From Parvibaculaceae bacterium (GTDB taxonomy: Bacteria > Pseudomonadota > Alphaproteobacteria > JAPOUT01): a stretch of 64,000 nucleotides of DNA. The notes below the pieces were generated by a model. It saw nothing but the letters and a program-made list of their open reading frames with translations. It ran no database searches and was not told where the DNA came from. The DNA lies in the NCBI GenBank assembly GCA_963457525.1, contig OY734805.1, positions 2,219,150 to 2,283,149 of the forward strand. The letters run 5' to 3'. Positions 21,141 to 48,815 of the stretch are shown here, in pieces. Numbering within the stretch: position 1 is the first letter of the stretch; every line of letters starts with the position of its first letter. A program made the translations under genes and the position numbers.

Positions 21141-21204
21141 GAGATATGAGGCTGCACAATAAACGGCAATTAATAATGTGGAAAACCTCAAATGGATGAG
21201 GCTG

Positions 21205-27676: not shown

Positions 27677-27815
27677 AAAATTCCCAAGATTATTTCCACA
27701 CAAAAATACGAGACCGCCCCTCAAGCTGCTTCCAATTGCGGCATGTTTTTGAATGGAAGCAACCCTTCTCCGCACCCCATGACAGAGGTGCGGAGAATTC
27801 GATTGCTAGAACGGT

Positions 27816-28865
27816 TTAGTAACGATAGGGAGGACCCGCCTCGTTCATCGTCTTGTTGTATTGCTTGAAAATCTCAATGACTTTCGCGCAACGCGGAGAG
27901 GTTTCAGCGATTTCGTCCCAGAACTTCAACGCCTCGTTCTCCACGGTTTTCCACTCTTCGTCCGGTATTGAAGTCAGCTCCAACTTCGTTCCCTCGGTGC
28001 GCAGCTTTGCCTCCCCGCCCCAATACCAATGCTGGCGGTAGTAGTGCGAACTGTCCATGCACAAACGGAACAATGTCTGCAAATGCTCCGGCAATGCGTT
28101 CCAGCTCTCGCTGTTGGCAAAGTAGGAACCGCACCACGCGCCCGAGATGTTATTGGTCAGGAAGTAGTTGGTCACATCCGCCCAGCCGACAGTGTAGTCT
28201 TCGGTGATGCCCGACCATGCGATGCCGTCCAGTTCTCCGGTCTGCACCGCAACTTCGATGTCTTCCCAAGGCAGAGTCACCGGCACGACGCCGAAGCGCT
28301 GCATGAACTTTCCTGCCGTCGGGAAGGTAAAGACGCGCTTGCCCTTCAAATCCTCAAGACTGCGTATGGGGTCCACCGTGTTGAAATGGCAGGGATCCCA
28401 CGCACCCGCGCTCAGCCAGGTAACATTCTCGATCTCGCCATACGCCTCCTCCCAGATTTCCTTCAAGCCGTAGAGTTCGAAGAGAACGGGAACGTCAAGG
28501 CTATAGCGCGTCGCAAAAGGGAAGTATCCGCCGAACACGGAGACATCCACCGGCGCGGCTATGGAATCGTCGTCGCTTTGAACCGCATCGACCGTGCCGT
28601 TCTGCATGGCGCGAAACAATTCGCCCGTCGGAACCAATTGGTCGGCAAAGTAGAGCTCAATCTCCATCTCGCCGTTTGCGACTTTGTTGAAAGCGTCGAT
28701 CGAGGGCTTGATTACATGCTCGGCAAGAGCCGGCCCTGCGTATGTCTGCAAGCGCCACCTGATTGGCGACTGCGCCCGGACGATATTCGGCGACGCCAAT
28801 GCAGCGGAAGCTCCGGCGACGGATACCGCCCCTGCTTTCTTTAAAAACTCTCTTCTCTTATTCAT
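27816..28865 (-). CDS. TRAP transporter substrate-binding protein (DctP family, Tat-type signal)
   Basis: 349 aa. MNKRREFLKKAGAVSVAGASAALASPNIVRAQ carries a twin-arginine motif, followed by a DctP-like fold. Confidence 0.85.
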   Translation of the reverse strand: MNKRREFLKKAGAVSVAGASAALASPNIVRAQSPIRWRLQTYAGPALAEHVIKPSIDAFNKVANGEMEIELYFADQLVPTGELFRAMQNGTVDAVQSDDDSIAAPVDVSVFGGYFPFATRYSLDVPVLFELYGLKEIWEEAYGEIENVTWLSAGAWDPCHFNTVDPIRSLEDLKGKRVFTFPTAGKFMQRFGVVPVTLPWEDIEVAVQTGELDGIAWSGITEDYTVGWADVTNYFLTNNISGAWCGSYFANSESWNALPEHLQTLFRLCMDSSHYYRQHWYWGGEAKLRTEGTKLELTSIPDEEWKTVENEALKFWDEIAETSPRCAKVIEIFKQYNKTMNEAGPPYRY

Positions 28866-28897: not shown

Positions 28898-30223
28898 CTA
28901 GCCTCCATAATACCAATTTGGCAGCCACAGGGCAATCTGCGGGAAAGCCATTACCAACACCAATCCCAACATCATCACCGCGACAAAGGGAATTATGGAG
29001 CGGTAGATGTCTCCGAGCGAAACTTCCGGCGGCGCCATCGCCTTCATTAAAAACAGATTGTATCCAAACGGCGGAGTCATGTATGCGATCTGGCATGTGA
29101 TGGTATACAAGACGCCGTACCAAATCAGGTCGAATCCCAGCAATCCGACCAGCGGAACATACAAGGGCGCAACGATTACAAGCATTGCCGTGTCATCGAG
29201 AAACATCCCCATGATCAGGTAGGACACCTGCATCAATATCAAAATGCCCCACGGACCGAGCCCGAGATTCCCTACAAAGAAATTCTCTATCGCCTTGACC
29301 GCGCCCAGGCCGTCAAACACGGCCCCGAAACACAGCGCCGCTAAAATTATCCACATGAACATGCAGCTCACGCCGAGAGTCTTGCGAACCGTCTCTTGCA
29401 GGACTTTTGCGCTCAAGCGTCCTTTGACCAGCGCGGCGACAAGCGATGCCGTTGCACCGACCGCCGAACTCTCCACCAGCGAAGTTATTCCCATCAGGAA
29501 CAATCCGGTCATGGAGAAAAAGATAAACAGCGGTACAATCCCGGCACGCAGCAGCCGGAGTTTTTCGCCCCAGCCCACCATGCGCCGCTCCTCTTCCGGC
29601 AAAGGCGGTCCCAGATGCGGCTGCAAACGACAGCGCACGACGATGTAAATAATAAACAAGGTTGCCATCAAAAGCCCGGGCAGCGCCCCGGCTATCCACA
29701 ATTGTCCTATCGGCTGGCGCGCAATCATTCCGTACAAAACCAGCACGACGCTCGGCGGCACCAAAATTCCCAGCGAACTCCCCGCCTGAATGACGCCTGT
29801 AACCATGATCTTGTCATAGCCCCGGCGCAACAACTCCGGAAGCGCAATGCTCGCGCCGATTGCCATGCCCGCAACGCTCAAGCCGTTCATTGCCGAAACG
29901 GCAATCATCAGGCCCATCGTGCCTATCGCCAAGCCTCCGTTGAGCGGACCCATCCACACATGAAACATGCGATAGAGATCATCGGCGATGCCCGACTCCG
30001 AAAGCATGTATCCCATGAAAATAAACAACGGCAGCGTCAGCAGCGGATACCATTTCATGACCTTCATTGCCGCCGAAAAAGCTATCTCCGAGCCGCCGTC
30101 CCCCCACAGGAGCAATGCCGACACCACGGCCACAAAACCTATTGCACCGAACACGCGCTGGCCGGTCAGCAGCATCACCATCATGCTGGCGAACATCGTC
30201 AAGGCGATGAATTCATAACTCAC
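28898..30223 (-). CDS. TRAP transporter large permease (DctM)
   Basis: 441 aa polytopic membrane protein with typical DctM length and pattern; overlaps the dctQ stop. Confidence 0.9.
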   Translation of the reverse strand: MSYEFIALTMFASMMVMLLTGQRVFGAIGFVAVVSALLLWGDGGSEIAFSAAMKVMKWYPLLTLPLFIFMGYMLSESGIADDLYRMFHVWMGPLNGGLAIGTMGLMIAVSAMNGLSVAGMAIGASIALPELLRRGYDKIMVTGVIQAGSSLGILVPPSVVLVLYGMIARQPIGQLWIAGALPGLLMATLFIIYIVVRCRLQPHLGPPLPEEERRMVGWGEKLRLLRAGIVPLFIFFSMTGLFLMGITSLVESSAVGATASLVAALVKGRLSAKVLQETVRKTLGVSCMFMWIILAALCFGAVFDGLGAVKAIENFFVGNLGLGPWGILILMQVSYLIMGMFLDDTAMLVIVAPLYVPLVGLLGFDLIWYGVLYTITCQIAYMTPPFGYNLFLMKAMAPPEVSLGDIYRSIIPFVAVMMLGLVLVMAFPQIALWLPNWYYGG

Positions 30224-30729
30224 GACAGAATCTTTCCCCGTGCCTGCGCGATATTCTTAAAGAGGGTGGAAACCGCTTGCAGCAGCATCAAGAATATCGC
30301 GACCGTCATGATGATTTTGATGGGGGCCATCGGCGGTGCCCATGAGGAGAAGCTACGCTCTCCGTAACGCAGCGCATACTCCGTGCTGGAAAACCCTCCG
30401 TACAGCAACACGCCCAGGTAAAACAGCAAAAAGAAAACCGTAAAGGCGTCCGTCCATGCCTGTCTCCGGGGCGTCCAGCTGCCGTAAAGCAAATCCATGC
30501 GCACATGCGAGCCCATCTGCATGGAATAGGCTCCGCCGAGAAGGTAGTAAGCGGTCATGGTGAATTGCGCCATCTCAAGCGTCCACAGCGCCGGCGTAAA
30601 AAACGTCTTCGAAACCGAGGAGTAAAACAATATCCCCATCATTACGAAAATCAGATACATCGTCCCCCTTCCGATAAACCGGTTGAGTCCGTCGACAAAA
30701 CGGACGTATGCGCAAATCGCTTTTATCAT
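30220..30729 (-). CDS. TRAP transporter small permease (DctQ)
   Basis: 169 aa with 4 predicted TM segments; located directly upstream of DctM. Confidence 0.85.
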   Translation of the reverse strand: MIKAICAYVRFVDGLNRFIGRGTMYLIFVMMGILFYSSVSKTFFTPALWTLEMAQFTMTAYYLLGGAYSMQMGSHVRMDLLYGSWTPRRQAWTDAFTVFFLLFYLGVLLYGGFSSTEYALRYGERSFSSWAPPMAPIKIIMTVAIFLMLLQAVSTLFKNIAQARGKILS

Positions 30730-30732
30730 GAC

Positions 30733-32034
30733 CTAGCAGTCCAGATAATTTTCCCGCTCCCAGTTTGTCAGGTGCCCGTTGTATCGATCCCATTCGGCAT
30801 GCTTGAGTTTCAAGAACGCATCCGTCACCGCATCCCCTAATTTTCCGCGAAGGGTCTTGTCCTTCTCCAGCGCGCGCAGGGCGTCCAAAAGGTTTGCAGG
30901 CAATTTCTTCGCGCCCCGGATCGTGTGCCCCTCGGCGTACATATCGATGTCGATGCGCTTGCCCGGGTCCTTCTTGCTGTCGATGCCGTCCATTCCCGCG
31001 GCCAGCAGTCCCGCCGGCAGCAAATAGGGATTCACGGCTCCGTCGGCGAGGCGAACCTCGAAGCGTCCCGGTCCGGGAATGCGAATCATATGGGTTCGGT
31101 TGTTTCCGCCGTAGCTGATTGTGTTGGGCGACCATGTTGCTCCCGAGGAAGTCCTCGGCGCGTTGATGCGCTTGTAGGAGTTCACGCTCGGATTCAGCAG
31201 CGCGCACAAGCCCTGCGCATGGGAGAGCAGCCCGCCCATGAAGTGATAACCGAGTTGCGAGACTCCCAACTCGCCGGCGGGATCCTCGAACAGGTTGTTA
31301 TCGCCCTTCCACAGGCTGACGTGGGCGTGGCATCCGTTTCCGGTGAGATTGGCGAAGGGCTTGGGCATGAAGGTTGCGCGCAAGCCGTTATGCTCGGCGA
31401 TGCTCCTGACCATGTATTTAAAGAACGCATGCCGGTCGGCGGTCACAAGGGCGTCATCGAAGTCCCAATTCATTTCGAACTGTCCGTTGGCGTCTTCATG
31501 GTCGTTTTGATAAGGGCCCCATCCGAGTTCCACCATGGCGTCGCATATCTGCGAGATGACATCGTAGCGCCGCATCAAGGCGGATTGGTCGTAACAAGCT
31601 TTTGCCTGGGTGTCGGTGCTGTCGGCAATGGATTTGCCGTCGGGGGAAATCAGAAAATACTCCGCCTCAACCCCGCAGCGCAGACGATAGCCCTTGCCGT
31701 CGGCCTCCTTGATCAATCGGCGCAGAACATTCCGGGGCGCCTGTTCGACTTCCTTGCCTTCCATCCACAGGTCCGCCGCGAGCCAGCCGACTTCCCGGTT
31801 CCACGGCAGTTGGATGAGAGAACCCGGGTCGGGCTTGGCGAGCATGTCGGGGAAGGCCGGAGTCATGTCCAGCCACGCCGCAAAGCCCGCAAAACCGGCA
31901 CCTTCCTCGACCATCTCGCCGATCGCACGCGCGGGCACGAGCTTCGCGCGCGCAACGCCGAACAAATCAACAAAGGAAATCAAAAAGTATCGAAGTCCCC
32001 GTTCTTTCGCAATCTTTTCTAAATCAATATTCAT
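30733..32034 (-). CDS. GS-fold ligase, type III / GmaS-like (gamma-glutamyl-amine synthetase candidate)
   Basis: 433 aa with FVDLFGVARAKLVP, GVEAEYFLI, KPFANLTGNGCHAHVSLW and NRTHMIRIPGPGRFEVRLADGAVNPYL. It lies immediately downstream of an MgsABC-like trio. Confidence 0.8.
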   Translation of the reverse strand: MNIDLEKIAKERGLRYFLISFVDLFGVARAKLVPARAIGEMVEEGAGFAGFAAWLDMTPAFPDMLAKPDPGSLIQLPWNREVGWLAADLWMEGKEVEQAPRNVLRRLIKEADGKGYRLRCGVEAEYFLISPDGKSIADSTDTQAKACYDQSALMRRYDVISQICDAMVELGWGPYQNDHEDANGQFEMNWDFDDALVTADRHAFFKYMVRSIAEHNGLRATFMPKPFANLTGNGCHAHVSLWKGDNNLFEDPAGELGVSQLGYHFMGGLLSHAQGLCALLNPSVNSYKRINAPRTSSGATWSPNTISYGGNNRTHMIRIPGPGRFEVRLADGAVNPYLLPAGLLAAGMDGIDSKKDPGKRIDIDMYAEGHTIRGAKKLPANLLDALRALEKDKTLRGKLGDAVTDAFLKLKHAEWDRYNGHLTNWERENYLDC

Positions 32035-32047: not shown

Positions 32048-33367
32048 CTATTCGCCCGGAATCCAGTTCGTTCCCGCGAGGGGAACGCCTGCCATGGCGG
32101 CGGCCTCAATGGTGAGGGCGGCCAAATCTTCCGGCTCCAGGTTATGCACATGACTTTTTCCGCATGCGCGTGCCAATGTCTGTGCTTCCAAGGTCAGCAC
32201 GCGTAAATAGTTTTCCAGGCGTCGTCCCGCCGCTTTTGCATTCAGGCGTTTTTCGAGCGCGGGGTCCTGTGTTGCAACGCCGACCGGACATCTTCCCGTA
32301 TGACAATGAAAGCATGAGCCGGGTTCCGTTCCGAGGGCGCGGTAATCCTCCTCGAAGAGCGGACGATTGCAGTTGAGGGCGATCATCGCCGCTACGCCTA
32401 TCGAAACCGCATCCGCCCCCAGCGCCAGCGCTTTCGCGACATCCGCGCCGGAGCGAATGCCTCCGGAGACAACCAGTTGCATCTTTCGGTGCTCTCCCAT
32501 GTCCTGGAGCGCGCGCACGGATTCGCGCACGGCCGCGAGCGTCGGGATTCCGACATGCTCGATGAAAACATCCTGCGTTGCGGCCGTGCCCCCTTGCATC
32601 CCGTCCAAAACGACGACATCCGCTTTCGCCTTGACCGCAAGCGCGGTGTCATAATAAGGACGCGCGGCCCCGATTTTAACGTAAACGGGTTTTTCCCAGT
32701 CGGTGATCTCGCGCAGTTCTTCTATCTTGATCTCGAGATCGTCGGGCCCCGTCCAGTCGGGATGCCGGCAAGCGCTTCTCTGGTCTATGCCTTCGGGCAG
32801 ATTGCGCATCCCGGCAACCCGCGAGGTAATCTTTTGTCCCATGAGCATGCCGCCGCCGCCCGGCTTTGCGCCCTGCCCCACGACGACTTCGATGGCATCG
32901 GCGCGGCGCAAATCATCCGGGTTCATGCCGTAGCGGGACGGCAGCAACTGGTAAACCAGCAAATTCGAATGTTCCCGCTCCTCCTCGGTCATGCCTCCGT
33001 CGCCCGTCGTGGTGGAGGTTCCCGTTGCGGATGCGCCCCGTCCCAGCGCCTCTTTTGCATTCGCGCCCAGCGCGCCGAAACTCATGCCCGCGATGGTGAC
33101 GGGGATTTTCAGGTGGATAGGCTTGGAGGCAAAACGGCTGCCCAGAATAACATCCGTGCCGCAATCCTCCCTGTATCCTTCGAGGGGATAGCGCGACATG
33201 GACGCCCCGAGAAACACAAGATCGTCGAAGCTGGGAACCCGGCGGCGCGCGCCCAGACCTCTTATTTCATAAATGCCTTCGTTTGCGGCGCGTTGAATCT
33301 CCGCAATTACGTGGGGCGGGAAAATCTCCGATGACCGGACGCGTCTGGAATCGTAATCGGTGCTCAT
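32048..33367 (-). CDS. FMN-binding glutamate-synthase-family protein (GltB domain 2; MgsC/GlxD-like)
   Basis: 439 aa with GMSFGALG, QGAKPGGGGML, LDGMQGGTAAT and a CHTGRCPVGVATQDP Fe-S-like motif. Confidence 0.85.
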   Translation of the reverse strand: MSTDYDSRRVRSSEIFPPHVIAEIQRAANEGIYEIRGLGARRRVPSFDDLVFLGASMSRYPLEGYREDCGTDVILGSRFASKPIHLKIPVTIAGMSFGALGANAKEALGRGASATGTSTTTGDGGMTEEEREHSNLLVYQLLPSRYGMNPDDLRRADAIEVVVGQGAKPGGGGMLMGQKITSRVAGMRNLPEGIDQRSACRHPDWTGPDDLEIKIEELREITDWEKPVYVKIGAARPYYDTALAVKAKADVVVLDGMQGGTAATQDVFIEHVGIPTLAAVRESVRALQDMGEHRKMQLVVSGGIRSGADVAKALALGADAVSIGVAAMIALNCNRPLFEEDYRALGTEPGSCFHCHTGRCPVGVATQDPALEKRLNAKAAGRRLENYLRVLTLEAQTLARACGKSHVHNLEPEDLAALTIEAAAMAGVPLAGTNWIPGE

Positions 33368-34059
33368 GCCGCGCCTGCGTTATCTATGGTGAAATTATAA
33401 AGTTTCCGCGCGGAACCGTAACGGCGAAAGGATTCCGCCTTGATTTTCGAGGACATCCCCGCGCTCGCCAGCAGCGCCTGCAGCGACTCGATGTGCTCGT
33501 TTCGCATTTCCTTCTCAACGCAATCGGCCCCGAGGCTTTCAACGTCCCCGCGCACGAACAAACGCGCCTCATATATGGAGTCGCCGAGGTCGGCGCCGGC
33601 ATCTCCGCACACGACAAGGCTTCCCGACTGCGCCATGAAGGCCGCCATGTGTCCGACATTTCCGCCGATAATGATGTCGACGCCCTTCATCGAGATGCCG
33701 CACCGCGCCGACGCGTTGCCCTCAACCACGACCAGACCGCCGTGTCCGCTTGCACCGACCGACTGGCTCGCGTTGCCCAGCACGCGCACGCTTCCCGACA
33801 TGATGTTTTCGGCCAAACCGGTTCCGGCGTTTCCGTCCACGGTGACGGTTGCGTGTTGATTCATGCCGGCGCAATAGTATCCGGCGTGTCCTTCAACGCT
33901 GACATCAAGCGGCGCGTTCAGGCCGCAAGCGAGGGAATGCGCTCCCCGGGGATGAAGGATGCGAAAAGCCTGTTCGCCGTTGCTTCGAAGCGTTTGGTTG
34001 ACCCGGCGCACGGAGAGTTCCTGCATATCGAGAGTCATCTGGTTGCGCCGGTCGTTCAT
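33364..34059 (-). CDS. GXGXG-domain protein (GltB C-terminal domain; MgsB/GlxC-like)
   Basis: The ATG at 34059 (alternative at 34038) gives about 231 aa with repeated G-x-G beta-helix motifs (VDGNAGTGLAENIMSGSVRVLGNA..., VVVEGNASARCGISMKG). Confidence 0.8.
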   Translation of the reverse strand: MNDRRNQMTLDMQELSVRRVNQTLRSNGEQAFRILHPRGAHSLACGLNAPLDVSVEGHAGYYCAGMNQHATVTVDGNAGTGLAENIMSGSVRVLGNASQSVGASGHGGLVVVEGNASARCGISMKGVDIIIGGNVGHMAAFMAQSGSLVVCGDAGADLGDSIYEARLFVRGDVESLGADCVEKEMRNEHIESLQALLASAGMSSKIKAESFRRYGSARKLYNFTIDNAGAA

Positions 34060-34063: not shown

Positions 34064-34963
34064 TTACTGCGTTTGGTGCCAGCTGTATATGCGCGAGGGT
34101 TCCGGCTCCCAGATGTTTGCGTTTCGTGCATCGGGAAGCACCGCGATCGCCCGAAACTCCGACGCCATCGCGACCCAGTCGTCGGTTTCGGCAATGACGG
34201 CGGGCTTGCAGGCGATGGGATCGCGCACGACGGCGAAGCCGTCCAGCGACCCGATGGCGAAAGTGTAAAAGCCGTCCAGGTCCTCAATGGCGTGCTCGAG
34301 CGCGGCGTCCAGATTGTCGCCCTGCCCCATTCGCCACGAGAGATACCCCGCGGCGACTTCGGAGTCGTTTTCCGTTTGAAAACTTTCGCCTTGAAGTTGG
34401 AGAAACCGTCTTAGCTGGTTGTGATTGGAAAGCGATCCGTTGTGAACGAGGCAGGTGTCGCGTCCGGTTGAAAAAGGATGCGATCCCCGGATGATGACCG
34501 CGGACTCGGTTGCCATGCGCGTGTGGGTGATGGCGTGGGTGCCGGTGCGCGACTCCAATCCGAAACGCTTGCCGACTTCGGCGGGATCGCCGACGCCCTT
34601 GAAAACTTCCATCGACTTTCCCGCACTCGAGACAATTACATCGGGCGCGTTCGCCAAAATCCATTCCCGCGCATCGGCGGCGACGTCCTTCTCAAATTCA
34701 AAAACGGCATGGTCTTCGATGGTTTGATAGGACATCTCGACTCCCAGGGCGGCTTTCAGGGACGCGAACAGTTCGCCCCAATCAACCGTGCCGGTCTCGG
34801 ACAACAATGTCAGCTTTGCGCCGGCGACCGGTTCGCCGTAGACCACAAAGCCTGCCGAGTCGGGCCCCCGGTCGCGCATCTCGTGGAGCATTCGCGCGCT
34901 CCAAAGTCCGAGCTCGTTGCGCAGTTCAGGGCGCTTCAAGAATAATCCCGTAATTCCACACAT
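34064..34963 (-). CDS. Class II glutamine amidotransferase (GltB domain 1; MgsA/GlxB-like)
   Basis: An internal ATG at 34963 gives MCGITGLF, with the N-terminal nucleophile Cys directly after Met (299 aa); also HTRMATES and VHNGSLSNH. Confidence 0.85.
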   Translation of the reverse strand: MCGITGLFLKRPELRNELGLWSARMLHEMRDRGPDSAGFVVYGEPVAGAKLTLLSETGTVDWGELFASLKAALGVEMSYQTIEDHAVFEFEKDVAADAREWILANAPDVIVSSAGKSMEVFKGVGDPAEVGKRFGLESRTGTHAITHTRMATESAVIIRGSHPFSTGRDTCLVHNGSLSNHNQLRRFLQLQGESFQTENDSEVAAGYLSWRMGQGDNLDAALEHAIEDLDGFYTFAIGSLDGFAVVRDPIACKPAVIAETDDWVAMASEFRAIAVLPDARNANIWEPEPSRIYSWHQTQ

Positions 34964-35042
34964 ATTTCTCTCTCTCCAAAAACAAAGCGCTAGTCTATCG
35001 CAACACGACAACAAAATCGAGCATCTGGTATACTCGGGCATT

Positions 35043-35534
35043 ATGGGAATTCAAGACGCCATCCGTTCGATTCCGGCAAAGCCCGGGATTGCCATTGCGA
35101 TTGTTGCGACGATTTTGTTCGGCGCATGGCATTTTTACACGGGCTGGCAGGCATGCGAGCATCGCGCCCGTGCCGCCGAAAGCATTCGCTCCGCCATTGC
35201 AACCGCACAAGACGGCGGCGTCCTCAACCTCGCCGAGATGTTCACATTTGCGTGGGATGAACTGCGCGTTCTTCACGACTACCATCCGGGCGAAAACGCA
35301 CTCGATTGTCCGTTCGGCAACCACTGGAGTCTTGAGGAGCGGCAGGCTCTTGCGCGCGAGGGCAACCTGGCCGCGCTCGTTCTTTCGCACGAGAACAATG
35401 CCGTTGCGTTTATTGAATACCTTAAAGAATGGGGGGATTTTCAAACCGGCGAAACTCCCCTGCCGCGCGAAAACGCCCGCTTCGAACTGCGCCGCAGCCT
35501 TCCCCCGCAATTACTCCCAATCCCGCCGAAATAA
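35043..35534 (+). CDS. Hypothetical membrane-anchored protein in the divergent spacer
   Basis: 163 aa from the ATG at 35043, with one N-terminal TM (GIAIAIVATILFGAWHFY). The ribosome-binding site is weak. The coding status is uncertain. Confidence 0.35.
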   Translation: MGIQDAIRSIPAKPGIAIAIVATILFGAWHFYTGWQACEHRARAAESIRSAIATAQDGGVLNLAEMFTFAWDELRVLHDYHPGENALDCPFGNHWSLEERQALAREGNLAALVLSHENNAVAFIEYLKEWGDFQTGETPLPRENARFELRRSLPPQLLPIPPK

Positions 35535-35655
35535 CGCTTTTCGGGGCAAATTTGCAAAAACCCGAAAAATGGTATTGAATACCCCCTTGCCCTTCGAAGG
35601 TGGCAGCCGCCTTCGCGGGTTGGAATATTTCTGTGTAAGAGCGAGGGACAAGATT

Positions 35656-37134
35656 ATGGCAACCGACATCGAAAAATTTGTTAAGGCTCAAGGACGGGAC
35701 AAACTCGTCAAAGAGGTTCGGCAAAAAATTGACGCGCTCGGCGTTGAGTATCTTTATTTGCAATTCGTTTCGGTGACGGGACGCATATGCGGCAAGGGAA
35801 TTCCCGCCGACCATTGGGAGGCTATCGCCGAAAAAGGATTCCAACTTGTTTACGGAGCAACGGTGAATCTTTTCCTCAATCGCCATGGCGACTATCTTGG
35901 CTACGGTCCCGAGGCAGCCGAGTTGGTCGGCATCCCCGAACCCGAAACCTTCATGCAGTTGCCCTGGGACAAAAGGGTCGCGCGCTTGTGGTGCACGCTT
36001 TTCCGCAACCGCGAAGAAAAAAAAGACCCCGGCGCGTTCTTAACGGCCGATTGTCGCGGCAACCTTCGCCGCATCCACGACCAATTCAAAAGGGACCACA
36101 AGGGTCTCCATCTTCGCGCGGGAACCGAACCCGAGATGATGTGGCTCAAGCGCGGCGAGGACGGCAAGCCCGACGGCGGCTACTCCAACCCCTACTGCTA
36201 TCACATCGACCAGTTCGAAAGCCTTCGTCCGGTCTACATGCAGGTGATCAAATACGCGAGAATGATGGGGCTGGACATGATTCAGGGCGACCACGAGGAT
36301 GCGCCGGGACAGCTCGAGCTCAACTGGACGTTTGACGACGTCCTGCGCAATGCCGACCGGCTGACGACCTACCGGCAAATCTGCGCCCAGGTCGCCCGCG
36401 AGAACAATCTGATCGCGTGTTTCATGTCGAAGCCGTTCATGGGCGTTTCCGCCTCCGGGTGTCACCACAACATCTCGCTTTGGACGGGCGGAAAAGAAAC
36501 CTTCAAGCCGCTCGGCAACGACCCGAAGAAACTTCCGGGCATGAAGGAAAATTACGCCTACCTCTCCGGCGGCAAAAACACCTTTATGCCGGACACCAAG
36601 GACCTGCAGCTTCCGGGCAAGGTCGGATTGATGTCGATAGGCGGAATCGTCAAGCACCTGGGTGCGTTGACGGCAATCGGCTGCTCGACGGTCAACTCCT
36701 ACCGGCGTCTTTGGGACACCGGCTTTTGGGCTCCCGTCTTCGCCGACTGGGGATACCAGAACCGCACAACGGGATTGCGCGTTTCCGCCCCCGGGCGTTT
36801 TGAGTATCGCGCCGTGGATTCGATGGTGAATCCGTATTTGATGGGCGCGGCGATCTTGAAGGCGTCCGACGACGGCATCCGCAAGAAGATAAACCCGGGC
36901 AAGCCGGAAAACCGCAACATTTACGAAGCGATGGAAGCCGGCAAATTGGTAAAGCGCCTGCCCATGACCCTGGGCGAAGCCCTTGAGGCGTTGCGCAAGG
37001 ACAAGGAAATCCAGTCCGCGATGCCGGGCGAGATGTTCCGCCTTTACACCGAATACAAGCAGGATGAATGGGAACGTTTCCTCCACACGACGACGCAGTG
37101 GGACCAGGACATGTATCTCGATTGTCTGCCGTAA
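35656..37134 (+). CDS. GS-fold ligase, divergent type III-like paralogue (492 aa)
   Basis: The ATG at 35656 is preceded by GAGGGA. Contains LQFVSVTGRICGKGIP, GTEPEMMWL, KPFMGVSASGCHHNISLW and NRTTGLRVSAPGRFEYRAVDSMVNPYL. It is about 60 aa longer than the 30733-32034 paralogue, including an extra segment after the HxxxSLW motif. Confidence 0.8.
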   Translation: MATDIEKFVKAQGRDKLVKEVRQKIDALGVEYLYLQFVSVTGRICGKGIPADHWEAIAEKGFQLVYGATVNLFLNRHGDYLGYGPEAAELVGIPEPETFMQLPWDKRVARLWCTLFRNREEKKDPGAFLTADCRGNLRRIHDQFKRDHKGLHLRAGTEPEMMWLKRGEDGKPDGGYSNPYCYHIDQFESLRPVYMQVIKYARMMGLDMIQGDHEDAPGQLELNWTFDDVLRNADRLTTYRQICAQVARENNLIACFMSKPFMGVSASGCHHNISLWTGGKETFKPLGNDPKKLPGMKENYAYLSGGKNTFMPDTKDLQLPGKVGLMSIGGIVKHLGALTAIGCSTVNSYRRLWDTGFWAPVFADWGYQNRTTGLRVSAPGRFEYRAVDSMVNPYLMGAAILKASDDGIRKKINPGKPENRNIYEAMEAGKLVKRLPMTLGEALEALRKDKEIQSAMPGEMFRLYTEYKQDEWERFLHTTTQWDQDMYLDCLP

Positions 37135-37153
37135 TTAGGAAGGAAGGTACGTT

Positions 37154-38095
37154 ATGTGTGGAATAGCAGGAATAATTCATCGCAATCGAACTTCGGACAT
37201 CGGCACGGAGATGACCTCGATGTTGCGCTCGTTGAAGCATCGCGGCCCCGACTCCACCGGTTTTGCAATCTACGGAAAGCCGGCCGCCGAAGATGACGTG
37301 CATGTCTTGCGCTTCAAAGTCGCCGAGCAGGAAGACCTCGACAAGGGATCGCATATCTACGAACTGATTGCCAAGCGTCGCGCCGAAGTCGAGGAATCGA
37401 TGAACAAGTTCGGCATCAAGATGGAGAAAATCGAAGAGCCGACCCCGTATGCGGTTCGTTGTTATATTCGCGGCGGCAAAGACCTCGAAAAACTCGCACG
37501 CAGAATCGAGGAAATCGAAGGCGTCGAAATCCTCTCGCTCGGACGCGCCCTCGAGCTCGTCAAGGACCTCGGCGATGCGGATGTCGTCTCGGAACAATAC
37601 GACCTGGGCGGTTTCCAGGGCACGCACGGCATCGGGCACACCCGCATGGCGACGGAATCGGATGTGGACATTCGCTCGGCGCACCCCTACTGGGCGTTCC
37701 CCTATCATGATATTTCCGTTGTGCATAACGGGCAGATAACGAACTACTGGATAATGAGACGGGAACTCGAACGCAAAAAACACCGCTTCCTTTCCAATTG
37801 CGACTCGGAACTTCTTGCCGTTTACACGGCGCATAATTTGGAGAACGGAGTCTCCCTGGAAGACTCCATGCGCCGCTCCATTGAAGAAATCGACGGCGTC
37901 TTCACCTACCTGATTGCGACGAAGGACCAACTCGGCATGGCAAAGGACACCATGGCGGCCAAGCCGATGGTGCTCTACGAAAACGACGACTTCGTCGCGC
38001 TTGCCTCCGAGGAAATCGCAATTCGCAGCGTTGTCCCCCACGAGATTGATACGACCGACCCCTACGACGAGGAGGTTCGTGTATGGCAGGCGTGA
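37154..38095 (+). CDS. Class II glutamine amidotransferase (GlxB/MgsA-like), second copy
   Basis: Begins MCGIAGII, with HTRMATES and VHNGQITNY; 313 aa. It is a paralogue of 34064-34963. Confidence 0.85.
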   Translation: MCGIAGIIHRNRTSDIGTEMTSMLRSLKHRGPDSTGFAIYGKPAAEDDVHVLRFKVAEQEDLDKGSHIYELIAKRRAEVEESMNKFGIKMEKIEEPTPYAVRCYIRGGKDLEKLARRIEEIEGVEILSLGRALELVKDLGDADVVSEQYDLGGFQGTHGIGHTRMATESDVDIRSAHPYWAFPYHDISVVHNGQITNYWIMRRELERKKHRFLSNCDSELLAVYTAHNLENGVSLEDSMRRSIEEIDGVFTYLIATKDQLGMAKDTMAAKPMVLYENDDFVALASEEIAIRSVVPHEIDTTDPYDEEVRVWQA

Positions 38096-38928
38096 AATCT
38101 TCGCGTTCACATGATATGGGGATGCACACGGAACAGCTGTCCGGCCGCGCGATGCAGCTCTTCTTCAACGCCGAAGAAGAAGGCGGTTTCACCTATGCCG
38201 ACGCTTTTGAGGTCGACTTCAACAAACGCGCCGAAATTGACGCCGAAGGCGTCAGCGTGCACGACATCAACCTGCGCATCCGCAAGCTGATGCAGGAAGG
38301 CTACGGCACCATCGTTTTGAAAAACCCCGGCGCCCGCCACTCCCTGTGCGCGGGCATCCTCAACCGCTTGAACCTGATCATCGAGGGTTCGCTGGGGTAT
38401 TTCGGATGCGGGCTGATTGACGGCCCCAACGTCCGCATATCGGGACGGGTGGGATGGTCGTTTGCCGAAAACATGATGGCGGGCGTTTGCGTGATTGAGA
38501 AGAACGCCGGATCGACTTTCGGGGCCGCTTTGCGCGGCGGCGACCTGGTCTGCAAGGGCTCCGTGGGCTCGCGCACGGGCATTGACATGAAAGGCGGAAC
38601 AATTTTAATCGGCGGCGACACGGGAGCGTTCTCCGGATTCATGATGCAGCGCGGACGGATGGTCGTGTGCGGCAACGCGGGAAAGAACCTCGGCGACTCG
38701 ATGTATGACGGAACGATATACGTCGGCGGCGAGATTCAATCGCTCGGCGTGGATGCCGTTCCCGAAGAGATGAGCGACATCGATCGCGAATGGCTCAAGC
38801 GCAAACTTTCAATGTACGAACTGCTCCCGAAAGACGGCTCCGTCGACCACTTCACCAAGATTGTTGCGGGACGCCAGCTTTGGAACTACGACAACCTCGA
38901 ACCGACGGAAAAGAAACTCATCCTCTAG
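38083..38928 (+). CDS. GXGXG-domain protein (GlxC/MgsB-like), second copy
   Basis: 281 aa with repeated G-rich beta-helix motifs (IIEGSLGYFGCGLIDGPNVRISGRVG..., LVCKGSVGSRTGIDMKGGTILIGGDTG). Overlaps the upstream gene by 13 nt. Confidence 0.8.
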   Translation: MAGVKSSRSHDMGMHTEQLSGRAMQLFFNAEEEGGFTYADAFEVDFNKRAEIDAEGVSVHDINLRIRKLMQEGYGTIVLKNPGARHSLCAGILNRLNLIIEGSLGYFGCGLIDGPNVRISGRVGWSFAENMMAGVCVIEKNAGSTFGAALRGGDLVCKGSVGSRTGIDMKGGTILIGGDTGAFSGFMMQRGRMVVCGNAGKNLGDSMYDGTIYVGGEIQSLGVDAVPEEMSDIDREWLKRKLSMYELLPKDGSVDHFTKIVAGRQLWNYDNLEPTEKKLIL

Positions 38929-38940
38929 GAAAGGACCACG

Positions 38941-40305
38941 ATGGCAAAGAAACCCACCGCACAAGAATCGATTGAACGGGAGCGCCGTTACGTTCTGGGC
39001 AAGAGCCAGATCTTCACGCCCGAGGTCATCAACGACATTCACGTCAAATCGGAACTGGGTCGGTATCGGATGCGCGGGTTTTCGATGTTCAAGAAGATTC
39101 CGCACTGGGACGAGCTGACATTTTTGCCCGGAACGCTTACACGCTTCGTCATTGAGGGCTACCGCGAAAAGTGCGAAACCAAAACCGTCATCGGACCCCG
39201 CGCCAAGCGCCCCCTTGAACTCGACATTCCCGTTTATGTGACGGGGATGAGTTTCGGCGCGCTGAGCTACGAGGCGAAGATTGCTCTCGCGCGCGGGGCG
39301 ACCATGGCCGGAACGGCGACCTGCTCCGGCGAAGGGGGAATGATTCCCGACGAGCGGCGCTATTCGTCCAAATGGTTCTACCAGAACATTCAGTCGCGCT
39401 ACGGATTCAATCCGCATCATTTGCGCCTGGCGGACGGTTGCGAGTTTTTCATCGGACAGGGCTGCAAGGTCGGACTCGGCGGACATCTGATGGGACAAAA
39501 AGTCACCGACCAGGTCGCGGAGATGCGCTCCCTGCCCGCGGGAATAGACCAGCGCTCGCCGGCGCGCCATCCCGACTGGCTCGGCCCCGACGACCTTGCG
39601 CTGAAGATTGAAGAAATCCGCGAGGCGACCAACTGGGAAATCCCCGTACAACTCAAACTCGGCGCCGCCCGTGTTTACGACGATGTCCGGATGGCTGTGA
39701 AATGCGGCCCCGATTCCATCTACATCGACGGGATGGAGGGCGGCACGGGAGCGGGTCCCCACCTCGCCACGGAAGAGACCGGGGTTCCGGGCATGGCGGC
39801 GATAAGACAGGCCCGCCGCGCGATTGACGATCTTGGCAAGCGCGGCGAGATTTCATTGGTTTATGCGGGGGGCATTCGCAACGGCGGAGATGTTGCAAAG
39901 GCGCTCGCGCTCGGAGCGGATGCGATTGCGATCGGCCACTCGGTAATGATGGCGTTGAACTGCAACAAGGACATTCCCGAGGCGGATTTCCCCGCCGAGA
40001 TGGGCGTGCACGCGGGCGAGTGCTACCACTGCCACACGGGAAGGTGTCCCGTCGGCGTTGCGACGCAGGACCCGGAACTTCGCAAGCGGCTGGATCCGGA
40101 TGCCGCCGCCGAGCGCGTTTACAACTTTCTGCACACATTGACGATTGAGTGCCAGATGATGGCCCGTGCGTGCGGAAAGACGAACATTCACAGCCTTGAG
40201 CCGGAAGATCTCGCGGCGCTGACAATGGAAGCGTCAGCGCTTGCGCAAGTCCCGCTTGCGGGAACCGACTACACCGTCGGCGTCGACGACTACCACCACA
40301 TTTGA
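38941..40305 (+). CDS. FMN-binding glutamate-synthase-family protein (GlxD/MgsC-like), second copy
   Basis: 454 aa with GMSFGALS, GQGCKVGLGGHLMG, IDGMEGGTGAG and CHTGRCPVGVATQDP. Confidence 0.85.
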   Translation: MAKKPTAQESIERERRYVLGKSQIFTPEVINDIHVKSELGRYRMRGFSMFKKIPHWDELTFLPGTLTRFVIEGYREKCETKTVIGPRAKRPLELDIPVYVTGMSFGALSYEAKIALARGATMAGTATCSGEGGMIPDERRYSSKWFYQNIQSRYGFNPHHLRLADGCEFFIGQGCKVGLGGHLMGQKVTDQVAEMRSLPAGIDQRSPARHPDWLGPDDLALKIEEIREATNWEIPVQLKLGAARVYDDVRMAVKCGPDSIYIDGMEGGTGAGPHLATEETGVPGMAAIRQARRAIDDLGKRGEISLVYAGGIRNGGDVAKALALGADAIAIGHSVMMALNCNKDIPEADFPAEMGVHAGECYHCHTGRCPVGVATQDPELRKRLDPDAAAERVYNFLHTLTIECQMMARACGKTNIHSLEPEDLAALTMEASALAQVPLAGTDYTVGVDDYHHI

Positions 40306-40317
40306 CGGGAGCGCGTT

Positions 40318-40707
40318 ATGGCAAAAAAAGAAGATGTCGATTATTTCCTGAAGCAAAGCGGTATTGATAGCGAGCGCGAGAAAATCATCGGGCAGCACAT
40401 AGGCTACCGCTACGATGTCAATCTGCTGCCCGACTACTCCCGGCTTACGCCCTTCCTGAAAGAATACATCGCCCACATGGGCTGGGAGGACCTGAACTGG
40501 CTCGAAGACGTCCACATGGGTTATGAGGAAGGCCGTCCCGCGGTGTTTGACAGAAACATCAACGGCTGGGTGACGGTCCCTAGCGAGATGAAACTTCCCG
40601 ACAACCAGCAAGACCGCGACATGCTCGCGCGCGAACTGCTTGTGAAATTCCAGATGTCTCCAAGCCATCCGCTTGTGCAGCTGAACAAGGCCTACCGCAA
40701 GTTTTAG
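40318..40707 (+). CDS. Hypothetical 129-aa soluble protein, last gene of the plus-strand GS/GOGAT-like operon
   Basis: GGGAG lies 8 nt before the ATG, which is 12 nt after the preceding stop. The protein is acidic with no TM, and I recognise no motif. Confidence 0.55.
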   Translation: MAKKEDVDYFLKQSGIDSEREKIIGQHIGYRYDVNLLPDYSRLTPFLKEYIAHMGWEDLNWLEDVHMGYEEGRPAVFDRNINGWVTVPSEMKLPDNQQDRDMLARELLVKFQMSPSHPLVQLNKAYRKF

Positions 40708-41702
40708 ATCTCAAAGCGGGACAGATAGGATTCCGCCAATTCCGTTGAGACCCTCGCGAAGTGCGGCGCCATCTCCTTCGCCAGATCCGTTTCCTTGTGC
40801 GAGCCAATCCACGCCAACAGCGCCATGCGCCGCAGCATGATGAAACTCTCAATTTCATCCTTGTCCGCCTTCCGCAGCGTGCGAACGCTTTCATAACCCT
40901 CAAGCCAGCAGGAAAGCAGGTCGGGAATGTCGGGATGGTCCTCGATGAAACTGATGCCGGCGGCGAAGTCGTAAAGATGCCAGCCGAGACCGCAGTCGTC
41001 GAAATCAATCAGACGCGGGGCATTATCGTAAATCAGAAGATTCGCGAGACGCATGTCGGCATGGATGAGGCCGAACACATCGGCGCCTTTGCCGTAGGCC
41101 GCAAGACGGCGCCGCAATGTCTTCTCCTGGCGCTCGAGGATCTCCTTCTCGGGCGCTCCCACGCCGGGAGCTTCGCGCCAGTCGCCCCAAATGACGTGCG
41201 GATGAAAGATATGCTCCTCGTCCCAAACGAGTCGCTCGAACCCCTCTCCGCGCTTCCAGGACATGGAATGAAGGTGCGTGCGTGCGCAAATCTCTCCCAA
41301 TTGCTTGAACGGTTCGCGCAAATCCTGGCTTTCATCCGGCTCGACGCCTTCGACGAATTCGAACAGCACCATGTGCCTGGGCTGCGGGAGCCCGCCCGCC
41401 GAACCGCTTTGAATCTCCTCGCCGTCGCGTCCGGCAATCGGCAGAGGCGTGAATACCCCGCCCTCCTTCCGCAACGCCCGCATCCATGCGAGTTCGCACC
41501 CGATGGCCTTGCGGGAGTGATACCCCTCCCGGTGCACGCGCAGCACGGCTTTTTCTCCCGAGGGCTGCTCGACAAGATAGGTGGCGTTTTCCGAAACATT
41601 GATCAGGCGCGCCTTTGCGCCGTCTTCCAAAGGCCACAGATGCAGAGAATCATTCGCCAGCCGGCATAACCGTTCAAGTGTCTGCTCATAGGTGGTATTC
41701 AT
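40704..41702 (-). CDS. Phosphotransferase-family (APH / homoserine kinase type II-like) protein
   Basis: The ATG at 41702 gives 332 aa. The Brenner-type motif LIHADMRLANLL and the downstream IDFDDCG are typical of the APH/ChoK kinase fold. Confidence 0.75.
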   Translation of the reverse strand: MNTTYEQTLERLCRLANDSLHLWPLEDGAKARLINVSENATYLVEQPSGEKAVLRVHREGYHSRKAIGCELAWMRALRKEGGVFTPLPIAGRDGEEIQSGSAGGLPQPRHMVLFEFVEGVEPDESQDLREPFKQLGEICARTHLHSMSWKRGEGFERLVWDEEHIFHPHVIWGDWREAPGVGAPEKEILERQEKTLRRRLAAYGKGADVFGLIHADMRLANLLIYDNAPRLIDFDDCGLGWHLYDFAAGISFIEDHPDIPDLLSCWLEGYESVRTLRKADKDEIESFIMLRRMALLAWIGSHKETDLAKEMAPHFARVSTELAESYLSRFEI

Positions 41703-41779
41703 GAACTTGCAAATCCTCTTGGTTTTGGGCGCAAAACGCCCTATCCTGTTCCCGACTTCGCAAAAAAGCAAGCCTCCCC

Positions 41780-43405: not shown

Positions 43406-43789
43406 TTACTTCCGCTTGGCGCGGCGCTTCGTGGTTTTTCTCTTTGCTGCGGGGCGTTTCCGCTTGGCGGTCGTCTTCCGCTTCGCGGTCTTCTTCCGCT
43501 TGGCGGCAGGACGCTTCCGTTTGGCAGTCGTCTTCCGCTTCGCGGTTTTCTTCCGCTTGGTAGCAGTCTTCTTCCGCTTGGCGGTCGTTTTCCGCTTCGT
43601 AGCGGTTTTCTTCCGCTTCGTAGCAGTCTTCTTCCGCTTGGCGGCAGGACGCTTCCGCTTGGCGGTCGTCTTACGCTTTGCAGTTGTCTTGCGTTTGGTT
43701 GTCGTCTTGCGCTTGGCAGGACGACGCTTCGCCGCCGACTTCTTTCGAGCAGGCGACTTTCTCTTCGTTGTTTTTTTCTTGGTTGCCAT
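43406..43789 (-). CDS. Histone H1-like, lysine/arginine-rich tandem-repeat protein
   Basis: The ATG at 43789 gives MATKKKTTKRKSPARKK followed by about 12 repeats of KRK(T/K)TA(K/T) / KRKRPAA (127 aa). The upstream region is AT-rich. Confidence 0.7.
   Translation of the reverse strand: MATKKKTTKRKSPARKKSAAKRRPAKRKTTTKRKTTAKRKTTAKRKRPAAKRKKTATKRKKTATKRKTTAKRKKTATKRKKTAKRKTTAKRKRPAAKRKKTAKRKTTAKRKRPAAKRKTTKRRAKRK
43409..43735 (-). repeat. In-frame tandem repeat of roughly 21-27 nt encoding the KRKxTA units
   Basis: On the plus strand the sequence shows reiterated CTTCCGCTTGGCGG / TCGTCTTCCGCTTCGCGG units. Confidence 0.8.
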
Positions 43790-44012
43790 TTTTCTTGAAC
43801 CTCTTGTTATATGTGTTTTTTGTTTTCTCCTTGCATTTGCGAGTCGAGAAATGATTCGATGCAAATGCGCGTTGATAATACAACATCTTTAAAAAAATCA
43901 AACAAAGAATTTACTTAAAAGAGATTCGCGGAAAAATTTTTTCCAAGTGATTCGTTTAATTTCGAAGAACGAAAAGGCAAAAACAGAGTCGAAAAAAGAA
44001 TCGCGGCGGTGT

Positions 44013-47992: not shown

Positions 47993-48289
47993 ATGAAAAA
48001 AATGGAAATAAAAGAAGTCCAAAATCTCGTAAAAAGGCTATCCAAGGGCATGTTGCCGGAGGGTGAGCTTGTTAAGGTGTATGTCAAAGAGAATGAAGAC
48101 TGGGAAGGAGAGGAGTTTCTCGATGTTATCATCGTGTTCGAGGGAAAGAAAAAATTAGATCACAAAAAGACACTCAGATTGGGACCGCTGACGCGCAAGG
48201 AAATGATAGAATCCGGAGATTCTCGCTTTCCGATGATCGATTTTGTAGTCAAGGACGAGGCGGGGGAGTTGGGGATTGCAATACCATAA
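47993..48289 (+). CDS. Small hypothetical protein, upstream partner of the HEPN gene (antitoxin candidate; not a canonical MNT)
   Basis: 98 aa. AAGAGGA lies 8 nt before the ATG. The 3' end overlaps the downstream gene by 14 nt. It lacks the GSxxRG...SDxD nucleotidyltransferase motif. Low GC. Confidence 0.45.
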   Translation: MKKMEIKEVQNLVKRLSKGMLPEGELVKVYVKENEDWEGEEFLDVIIVFEGKKKLDHKKTLRLGPLTRKEMIESGDSRFPMIDFVVKDEAGELGIAIP

Positions 48290-48767
48290 AGAACTGCTTT
48301 CACTGGCGAGATACATTTTAGAGCAAAATAATACAAGGCCTTCGCAAGCCGCTTTGCGTCGGGCGGTCAGCACGGTTTATTACGCCTTGTTTCATGCTTT
48401 GGCGAAGAGTGGAGCGGATTTACTGGTTGGCAAAACAAAGCGCCATCGCAGTAAACACGCTTGGCAGCAAGTTTATCGGGGATTGGAACATAACTCGGTG
48501 AGAAGTGCCCGCAGGAACAAAGACATCTTGAAAAAATTCCATCCGTCAATACAGGACTTTGGCGATCTTTTTGTCAATATGTGTCGGGCTCGTAACAATG
48601 CAGACTATGATCCTTATGCAACTTTTACAAAATCCTCCGTGGAGGCATACATTGTCCGTGCCGAAGAGGCAATAAAGAGTTTTGACAAGATGCCCATTAA
48701 AGACCGCAGAGCTTTTTGCGCGTATGTTTTGTTTAAAGTGCGCAAATTGGAGCCACAAAATTTCTAA
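48276..48767 (+). CDS. HEPN-domain-like protein (toxin candidate)
   Basis: 163 aa. The N-terminal helix AALRRAVSTVYYALFHALAKSGADLL and the later CRARNNADYD are typical of classical HEPN (PF05168-like) proteins. There is also an R-x4-H string (RHRSKH). Confidence 0.55.
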   Translation: MQYHKELLSLARYILEQNNTRPSQAALRRAVSTVYYALFHALAKSGADLLVGKTKRHRSKHAWQQVYRGLEHNSVRSARRNKDILKKFHPSIQDFGDLFVNMCRARNNADYDPYATFTKSSVEAYIVRAEEAIKSFDKMPIKDRRAFCAYVLFKVRKLEPQNF

Positions 48768-48815
48768 AGCCGGAACGCGCTATGGTCAGGCTTCATAAAA
48801 TCGGGCTAAAAAACA

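Follow-up and report, generated by a model that had tools for sequence, protein, structure and literature searches.

Introduction

Methylated amines—trimethylamine (TMA), TMA N-oxide (TMAO), dimethylamine (DMA), and monomethylamine (MMA)—are major nitrogen and carbon sources in marine and host-associated settings as well as aerosol precursors, and the accepted pathway for their degradation assigns one enzyme set to each step. The closest described relatives of the system considered here form the front end of the N-methylglutamate (NMG) pathway: the ligase GmaS and the synthase subunits MgsABC, encoded by adjacent, tightly packed genes in Methyloversatilis, Methylocella, R. pomeroyi, and P. aminophilus. 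Here, we describe a plus-strand cassette of five genes (LIG2-B2-C2-D2-S2, positions 35656–40707) in a 64,000-nucleotide stretch of contig OY734805.1, hereafter the window, from the alphaproteobacterial assembly GCA_963457525.1 (Parvibaculaceae bacterium). The cassette encodes the same four protein types as gmaS-mgsABC and adds a constant fifth protein, S2; judged by sequence comparison, it is a separate, old, and deeply diverged paralogue of the NMG front end.

Both gene orders are found among the described operons: mgsABC-gmaS in P. aminophilus (PMC4543880), which is also the order of a minus-strand array in the window, and gmaS-mgsABC, co-transcribed with the ligase first, in R. pomeroyi (PMC13390433). 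The ligase-first order of the plus-strand cassette, which an earlier reading of this DNA (the original prediction) pointed out, is therefore shared with a described operon. The same reading held that the role of glnT-glxBCD operons had never been settled. However, a 2011 paper on C1 metabolism in SAR11 equated glnT-glxBCD with gmaS-mgsABC, and these operons correspond to the gmaS-mgsABC of the NMG pathway (PMC3160333, PMC4543880, PMC13390433).

Two other groups of systems bear on the comparison. DmmDABC carries out the DMA step, which is missing from many genomes holding other methylated-amine steps (PMC5520151). It is a four- or five-gene unit comprising the haem/PAS protein DmmC (DUF3445), the PDR/VanB reductase DmmB, DmmA, and the GcvT-like DmmD, and its folds are entirely different from those of the plus-strand module. 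The possibility that dmmDABC is itself the glutamine synthetase (GS) plus GltB-fragment set was considered and rejected, since DmmD is a GcvT/THF protein (PMC5520151) and rhizobial DmmABC have unrelated folds. In the second group—PuuA-D for putrescine, Ipu for isopropylamine, GlnA4 for ethanolamine, and the aniline/naphthylamine routes—a GS-like ligase glutamylates the amine before oxidation, and an amidotransferase-type hydrolase releases the glutamate tag at the end of an oxidase/aldehyde dehydrogenase/hydrolase chain; the main form of the plus-strand module instead couples the ligase to an MgsABC-like synthase.

Organization of the two operons

Reading of the window confirmed five plus-strand open reading frames (ORFs) at 35656–40707 with successive spacings of +19, −13, +12, and +12 nt, in agreement with the four tightly packed core genes (gaps of 19 and 12 nt and a 13-nt overlap) of the original prediction; from this spacing, we infer that the five genes are probably co-transcribed. 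LIG2 (35656–37134) encodes a 492-aa GS-fold protein (Gln-synt_C, 258.7 bits in Pfam) that resembles GmaS-type ATP-dependent γ-glutamyl-amine ligases and represents a distinct family; its ATG sits within a longer ORF (35089–37134) and is preceded by GAGGGA. B2 (37154–38095) encodes a 313-aa class-II (Ntn) amidotransferase of MgsA/GlxB type that begins MCGIAG and matches GATase_6/7 in Pfam. The start of C2 (38083–38928) provides the overlap with B2, and its product is a 281-aa GXGXG β-helix protein similar to MgsB/GlxC (PF01493, 51 bits). D2 (38941–40305) encodes a 454-aa protein similar to MgsC/GlxD with an FMN glutamate synthase domain (PF01645 Glu_synthase, 301.7 bits; FMN_dh), the translation of which carries a CxxCxxxxC motif, read as CYHCHTGRC. 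The fifth gene, S2 (40318–40707), encodes a 129-aa orphan protein without a Pfam or NCBIfam match.

The cassette stands back-to-back with a minus-strand array, mgsABC-gmaS-TRAP-GS3, whose first four genes are a canonical NMG front end: mgsA (34064–34963), mgsB (33364–34059 or –34038), mgsC (32048–33367), and gmaS (LIG1, 30733–32034). LIG1 scores 667.7 bits against TIGR03105, above the cutoff of 469.6, and 662 bits against crystallised RhGmaS (7cql). This minus-strand set is the classical methylamine-to-N-methylglutamate operon of the window.

Orthology was assessed against R. leguminosarum GlnT/GlxD/GlxC/GlxB. By this reference, the minus-strand proteins are 62/76/58/51.5% identical to their rhizobial counterparts and the plus-strand proteins 31/52/40/31%; the glnT-glxBCD counterpart in the window is thus the minus-strand set and not, as the original prediction had it, the plus-strand copy. 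Within the window, the two sets share 30% (LIG), 34% (B), 34% (C), and 54% (D) identity. The plus-strand module accordingly has the composition of MgsABC—a separate Ntn amidotransferase with an N-terminal Cys, a GXGXG protein, and an FMN Glu_synthase-domain protein beside the ligase—and the same domain set as rhizobial glnT (GSIII)-glxBCD, but the rhizobial genes are orthologous to the minus-strand set.

Gene order differs as well. On plasmid pR132502 of R. leguminosarum WSM1325 (L089, 21538–32294), glxB-C-D-glnT is contiguous with purU-dmmDABC-tmm, with tdm and an APC permease nearby, whereas the plus-strand module is ligase-first. The pR132502 genes in themselves make up a full methylated-amine island, carried by a symbiont plasmid.

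Sequence and structure of the ligase

LIG2 fails every curated family cutoff tried. Against TIGR03105 (GmaS/type III glutamate–ammonia ligase) it reaches 302.4 bits in two stretches split at an insertion, against a cutoff of 469.6; the corresponding values are 244 bits versus 429 for GlnA (TIGR00653) and 214 bits versus 650 for PuuA (NF045547). It is 30% identical to the 433-aa LIG1 and 59 aa longer, close to the 60 aa estimated in the original prediction. The extra stretch which that prediction placed directly after CHHNISLW was recovered in alignments with the paralogue and homologues as a family-specific segment at residues 277–324 (36484–36627, plus strand); it replaces a 20-aa stretch of the paralogue, for a net insertion of about 28 aa. 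The remaining ~31 extra residues comprise a 16-aa N-terminal extension and inserts of 3, 3, 4, and 8 aa, which are countered by a loss of 5 aa from the flap loop, the counterpart of the ATP-responsive flap of RhGmaS (Lys287–Ile305).

The insertion is a tandem duplication of a hairpin of about 20 aa (TGGKETFKPLGNDPKKLPG / SGGKNTFMPDTKDLQLPG), with a local alignment score of 44 as compared with 19.6 ± 4.4 for shuffled sequences (0 of 2000 shuffles reached 44). All 25 aligned homologues have it, with hardly any variation in the second copy. The biochemically characterised GmaS enzymes 7cql and 9qur lack the insertion, as does, judging by its length, rhizobial GlnT (435 aa); sharing of the segment with characterised GmaS or GlnT enzymes, which the original prediction had named as evidence that would tell against it, was thus not observed. 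The closest solved structures match LIG2 at only ~1e-51, and all break at or lack the insertion. AF2 draws the segment as extra β-hairpins with pLDDT values of 62–84. The duplicated hairpin beside the ATP site provides a clean structural marker of the LIG2 family.

LIG2 was aligned with LIG1 and the 7cql (RhGmaS) sequence by MAFFT, with residue roles taken from the published structure (PMC7948447). Residues for metal, glutamate, and phosphate binding and for catalysis are retained (Glu158, Glu160, Glu214, Glu221, Glu383, His270, Arg351, Arg370, Arg375, Arg385, Asp212), among them the equivalents of the proposed catalytic pair Asp177/Glu186 of RhGmaS (Asp212/Glu221). All seven residues of the RhGmaS methylamine pocket (Tyr147, Gln175, Asp177, Glu179, Glu186, Asn188, and Lys30′) are identical in LIG2 (Tyr182, Gln210, Asp212, Glu214, Glu221, Asn223, and Lys47′), whose QxDHED motif, including the methylamine-deprotonating Asp212, is of the GmaS type and not of the GS pattern. 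The changes from RhGmaS to LIG2 cluster on the nucleotide side: Tyr174 to Ile209, His237 to Asn272, and Gly231 to Ala266. Tyr174 and His237 are adenine/phosphate contacts in RhGmaS, with His237 donating an adenine hydrogen bond. The second His of the GS HxH motif is Asn throughout the LIG2 family (residues 270–273, 36463–36474), with His at the x position.

The original prediction placed the insertion near the substrate pocket. The sequence register suggests otherwise: the insertion starts three residues past Ser274, the equivalent of the adenine contact Ser239 of RhGmaS, and it therefore appears to flank the ATP entrance and adjoin the adenine-binding strand, and not the unchanged amine pocket, a placement that derives from this register and not from a measurement in the model.

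Distribution and conservation of the family

Over 3500 relatives of LIG2 are found in the database; the 120 best are 78–98% identical and 484–507 aa long. Orthologues of 76–86% identity occur in at least 598 GTDB species of Alpha- and Gammaproteobacteria. Culturable carriers of the module include Roseovarius atlanticus R12B, Marinibacterium profundimaris 22II1-22F33, Aurantimonas sp. A3-2-R12, and Taklimakanibacter lacteus. At 50% identity, the clustering level of one library, the family forms essentially a single cluster, and the next full-length relatives are 42–51% identical.

The cassette is retained as a unit. The ligase-B-C-D-S order, a comparison proposed in the original prediction, was kept in 59 of the 68 related alpha- and gammaproteobacterial loci long enough to judge, with identities of 76–83% for the ligase, 64–74% for B, 68–80% for C, 85–93% for D, and 70–85% for S. 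Orthologues of B2 in the same identity range lie downstream of LIG2 in 74 of 83 loci, and S2 lies downstream of D2 in 62. In one related metagenome-assembled genome (MAG), the D2 gene (L039, 11429–12748) matches as three overlapping pieces, a frameshifted or mis-assembled copy.

S2 is itself abundant, with at least 8000 database clusters; the best 120 matches are 66–99% identical, mostly around 80%, and a protein of a Hyphomicrobiales MAG is 99% identical. Among 26 sequences, 63 positions are invariant. The AF2 model of S2 (pLDDT 70.6) had no Foldseek match in the PDB at E ≤ 0.001 (best E 1.7). The idea that S2 is a remnant of the GltB central domain found no support in Pfam, NCBIfam, or the Foldseek search of the PDB. 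Whatever the substrate of the module, S2 defines a new protein family that is abundant, has no known fold, and accompanies a glutamate-synthase-like enzyme.

Literature searches on the LIG2 module and family found no paper; one preprint on coral-associated Ruegeria counts additional gmaS/mgsABC copies without distinguishing them. In current annotation, the genes appear as "glutamine synthetase / glutamate synthase family" or are counted as spare gmaS/mgsABC. The original prediction of an uncharacterised enzyme system, as opposed to a known pathway, thus holds in part: no characterised member was found and LIG2 falls below the curated cutoffs, but the proteins are a variant of NMG-pathway enzymes. 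Widespread, under strong constraint, and unstudied, the plus-strand family constitutes a variant of NMG-pathway enzymes in its own right and not a system of a new kind.

Genomic context in related genomes

Neighbourhoods were read from the contigs of homologues (L001–L088) and not from further records of the window ligase; neighbour counts are out of 83 LIG2 loci, with flanks reaching 8–10 kb. The most frequent neighbour is a divergent GntR/FCD regulator (70 loci), followed by U193, an unknown protein of ~190 aa (49), and a DAO flavoprotein of ~450 aa encoded directly upstream on the same strand (46). The nearest solved relatives of the DAO protein are sarcosine oxidase β subunits and L-amino-acid deaminases, with dimethylglycine oxidase a weaker match. 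Further neighbours include a CN-hydrolase (36), an Amt-family transporter (29), a type-1 amidotransferase (23), a Tmm-like FMO (20), TmoX/ProV-type ABC parts (15–17), Tdm (7–11), and canonical gmaS (7). Like GmaS-MgsABC, the plus-strand module therefore occurs within methylated-amine gene islands. In contrast to the NMG pathway, it is usually linked to the single-subunit DAO, and none of the loci examined had an MgdABCD-type set next to it.

Pfam annotation of long contigs illustrates three arrangements. One is a one-strand array, AraC-GATase1-PhyH-GntR | DAO-LIG2-B2-C2-D2-S2-U194-tmm-tmoX-tmoW-tmoV-tdm; the second reads tmoX | tmoWV-tdm | GntR | LIG2...S2; and the third, gmaS-u169...GntR | LIG2...S2 | Amt | mgsABC. 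The module adjoins canonical gmaS/mgs in the window and in eight other loci (L007, L019, L021, L023, L029, L034, L038, and L086). Additionally, LIG2 and canonical gmaS were found in one genome in OZ244972, JBPPND01, JAWKVX01, and JAVKFX01, among the 80 loci listed for each.

The GntR regulator appears to have its own operator, also a difference from the NMG pathway. An operator-like motif, AATTGGTTTGCAAT, lies between the GntR gene and the DAO/LIG2 operon in 27 of its 29 hits in LIG2 loci, as compared with one hit in 2.85 Mb of other loci. It is often accompanied by further TTGG repeats at a spacing of ~10 nt, and it was never found upstream of tmm in the loci scanned. A possible counterpart of the regulator is TmoR, the DMA-sensing regulator of R. 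pomeroyi.

A minority form carries the ligase without B2C2D2 (L060, L066, L067, L069, L073, and L074), in five of six cases close to tmm. A cytochrome P450 follows the ligase in L060 (8001–10691) and L067 (8001–10663), next to tmm/tdm, and a second GS-like gene lies beside the ligase in L060, L067, and L074. Similarly, a Ruegeria plasmid (L084, 9925–13946) carries a LIG2-type ligase with a cytochrome P450 and a second GS-like protein and no MgsABC-like genes. More distant plasmid relatives of Ruegeria and Paracoccus (53–55% identity) lie in clusters of P450, ferredoxin, aldehyde dehydrogenase, type-1 amidotransferase, and PuuD-like hydrolase genes. These plasmid relatives and the minority loci with LIG2, P450, and GATase1 resemble the other γ-glutamylation routes described above.

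Proposed function and candidate substrates

With moderate confidence, we propose that the plus-strand module γ-glutamylates a small methylated amine and transfers the amine to the α-position by an MgsABC-like reaction, with S2 as an extra subunit. LIG2 would use ATP to form γ-glutamyl phosphate and capture the amine as a γ-glutamyl amide, chemistry suggested by LIG2 having kept every residue that GmaS uses for catalysis, for metal and glutamate binding, and for the amine pocket. Judging from the homologous MgsABC and glutamate synthase, B2, with its N-terminal Cys as the Ntn nucleophile, would hydrolyse the amide and hand the amine to D2, which would use FMN and its Cys cluster to condense the amine with 2-oxoglutarate and reduce the product to an N-alkylglutamate; the GXGXG β-helix of C2 would serve as a scaffold. 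S2 is most likely an additional subunit or an assembly factor specific to the family, given its enzyme-like conservation and its fifth position. In most other genomes, the upstream sarcosine-oxidase-like DAO, the gene for which is not in the window, would then oxidatively remove the alkyl group.

The original prediction allowed that the plus-strand operon might be redundant with the minus-strand set. Comparative evidence leans against redundancy, since the paralogues are only 30–54% identical and the module often occurs beside, or in one genome with, canonical gmaS/mgs. The best reading, which we hold to be reasonably probable, is a non-redundant NMG-type module that works beside, and not instead of, canonical gmaS-mgsABC. 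Should its substrate be a different amine, surveys with gmaS and dmm as marker genes give a false picture of which organisms degrade which compound.

As to the amine itself, DMA is our first candidate, though a tentative one, and methylamine in a non-redundant role is a second and similarly doubtful one; other small amines come third and are improbable. The case for DMA derives mainly from the distribution of Dmm. A tblastn search for DmmA/B/C gave no hit in the 88 LIG2 loci or the window, and no LIG2-module genes were found in the 80 DmmC loci listed, where tmm (74/80) and tdm (69/80) are present. No assembly was common to the LIG2 list and two DmmC lists (80 loci listed each), one of which was seeded from Aestuariivirga, a genus with both kinds of species. 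DmmDABC and the LIG2 module thus occupy the same niche next to tmm/tdm and were never seen in the same locus (0/88 and 0/80), a mutual exclusivity that is suggestive in these loci. Such alternative neighbours of tmm-tdm are as expected if both serve the same step, for which DmmDABC is the other candidate: the removal of Tdm-produced DMA. The minority architecture in which LIG2 is paired with a cytochrome P450 in place of B2C2D2 next to tmm/tdm also favours DMA, as does RhGmaS, which demonstrates that an enzyme of the GS fold is able to glutamylate DMA, albeit weakly (Km 16 mM; PMC7948447).

It is possible, though we regard it as rather doubtful, that LIG2-B2-C2-D2-S2 and the usual DAO constitute an unrecognised haem-independent DMA route that substitutes for DmmDABC. 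In this route, DMA would be γ-glutamylated, and its transfer to 2-oxoglutarate would yield N,N-dimethylglutamate; in the variant with the P450, demethylation would take place on the amide instead. A last oxidative demethylation would lead into the N-methylglutamate/glutamate pool. Such a route, if real, would fill a recognised gap, explaining how bacteria with tmm, tdm, and gmaS and without dmm pass the reported "DMA bottleneck."

Several observations weigh against these proposals. The exclusivity of Dmm and LIG2 is confounded by the number of loci listed (80), by a first DmmC sample drawn mostly from Rhizobiaceae, and by flanks of 8–10 kb. The pocket of LIG2 is the same as that of the methylamine-specific enzyme, so there is no first-shell argument for a larger substrate, and the AF2 model of LIG2 is moderate (overall pLDDT 64). 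A secondary amine would need an iminium intermediate in D2, for which we know of no precedent. A literature search for a γ-glutamyl-dimethylamide or N,N-dimethylglutamate pathway returned unrelated chemistry only. Finally, the GntR, DAO, U193, CN-hydrolase, Amt, tmm, and tdm partners, as well as the operator-like motif AATTGGTTTGCAAT, were not found in the 64-kb window. The organism is sponge-associated, with sponge metagenomes containing 60–73% of the sampled window words, and the missing partners and motif suggest that this sponge-symbiont copy may be used differently.

The strongest alternative, which we consider possible and far from established, is an isofunctional methylamine module: LIG2 and B2C2D2 would duplicate GmaS and N-methylglutamate synthase, respectively, act on MMA, and be set apart from the canonical enzymes only by affinity, by regulation, or by their physiological role (e.g., nitrogen scavenging as opposed to carbon or energy use). 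The methylamine pocket (7/7) and the catalytic Asp/Glu pair are identical to those of RhGmaS, an enzyme with a Km of 27 µM for MMA as compared with 8.7 mM for NH4+ (PMC7948447). The subunit architecture is that of MgsABC, the preprint on coral-associated Ruegeria reads extra gmaS/mgsABC copies in this way, and in some islands the module is the sole NMG-like module within 10 kb of tmm-tdm. However, the paralogues are old, and the 76–93% identity maintained across two classes reflects strong constraint, a combination more typical of distinct function. Canonical gmaS-mgsABC is, moreover, frequently adjacent, and the canonical pathway has nothing equivalent to the constant S2 or to the associated DAO, P450, and CN-hydrolase genes.

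The module might instead act on another small amine outside C1 metabolism, such as ethylamine, ethanolamine, aminopropanol, or hydroxylamine, in the manner of isopropylamine, ethanolamine, and putrescine γ-glutamylation. RhGmaS accepts ethylamine and hydroxylamine well (PMC7948447), the gene clusters around the distant plasmid ligases are of a kind with such routes, and an APH/choline-kinase-like gene lies beside LIG2 in the window, with a different, non-homologous choline-kinase/APH gene near LIG2 in L060. We nevertheless judge this alternative unlikely, as the specific association of the orthologous family (≥75% identity) is with tmm, tdm, tmoX, and canonical gmaS, and genes for aldehyde dehydrogenases or alcohol handling show no consistent linkage to the family.

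An ammonium-assimilating pair analogous to GS and glutamate synthase (GOGAT), in which LIG2 makes glutamine and B2C2D2 makes glutamate from it, would fit the GS fold, the presence of all three core domains of the glutamate synthase large subunit, and the Amt-family transporter in 29 loci, but is highly improbable given the GlnA score far under cutoff, the GmaS-type QxDHED motif with Asp212, a D2 score of 131 bits against a GltB cutoff of 1047, the lack of a GltD-type subunit or central domain in or next to the operon, and the amine-catabolic character of the neighbouring genes.

Upstream region

A possible sixth gene, which would be the first of the cassette, lies 121 nt upstream of LIG2, between the plus- and minus-strand operons. 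This ORF, u163 (35043–35534, plus strand), encodes a 163-aa protein with a hydrophobic N-terminal stretch and without a Pfam family. Homologues of 26–33% identity are encoded directly after canonical gmaS in L007, L019, and L086, and another occurs in L064. The single sigma-70-like site of the region (35005–35034) is just upstream of u163; simple promoter and terminator scans of the region were at background level, and an Rfam search upstream of LIG2 found nothing credible. A palindrome, GGTATTGAATACC, at position 35571, upstream of LIG2, was rejected as a conserved element, being found in 0 of 80 related loci. Sequencing runs that contain the window sequence look DNA-like, with flat depth.

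Surroundings within the window

Beyond gmaS, the minus-strand array continues with three genes for a TRAP transporter, assigned by reading of their translations: dctQ (30220–30729), dctM (28898–30223; also by a DctM cross-match in L027), and dctP (27816–28865). The dctQ gene lies 4 nt from the stop region of gmaS and overlaps dctM, which suggests an uptake system for amines or organic acids that is co-transcribed with mgsABC-gmaS. After the TRAP genes, the array ends in a third GS-like gene, GS3 (26291–27676, minus strand, within an ORF extending to 27775; Gln-synt_C, 277.6 bits for 26291–27775), so that three GS-like paralogues lie within 11 kb. Its motif STEFAPGQFEVN looks PuuA-like.

On the other side, a minus-strand gene for an APH-family phosphotransferase (40704–41771, Pfam) is convergent to S2. 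Its depth is about twice that of its flanks in four DNA runs (40710–41640), and reads join differently at 40710; the doubled depth and alternative junction suggest that the APH gene is also present in a second context or strain. The remaining flanking genes, by reading of their translations, are presumably housekeeping genes (secDF, serS, tatBC, ffh, gatCAB, pyrB, topA, and ndk). Also in the window, a minus-strand ORF at 43406–43864 encodes a 152-aa Lys/Ala/Thr-rich protein without a Pfam match, whose KRKTTAKRK-type repeats are similar to histone H1 or AlgP tails. The G+C content falls to 0.45–0.47 at 20001–22000, 48001–50000, and 58001–64000, as compared with ~0.57–0.60 elsewhere; these low-G+C stretches, in which ORFs are short and codon bias is weak, may have been acquired.

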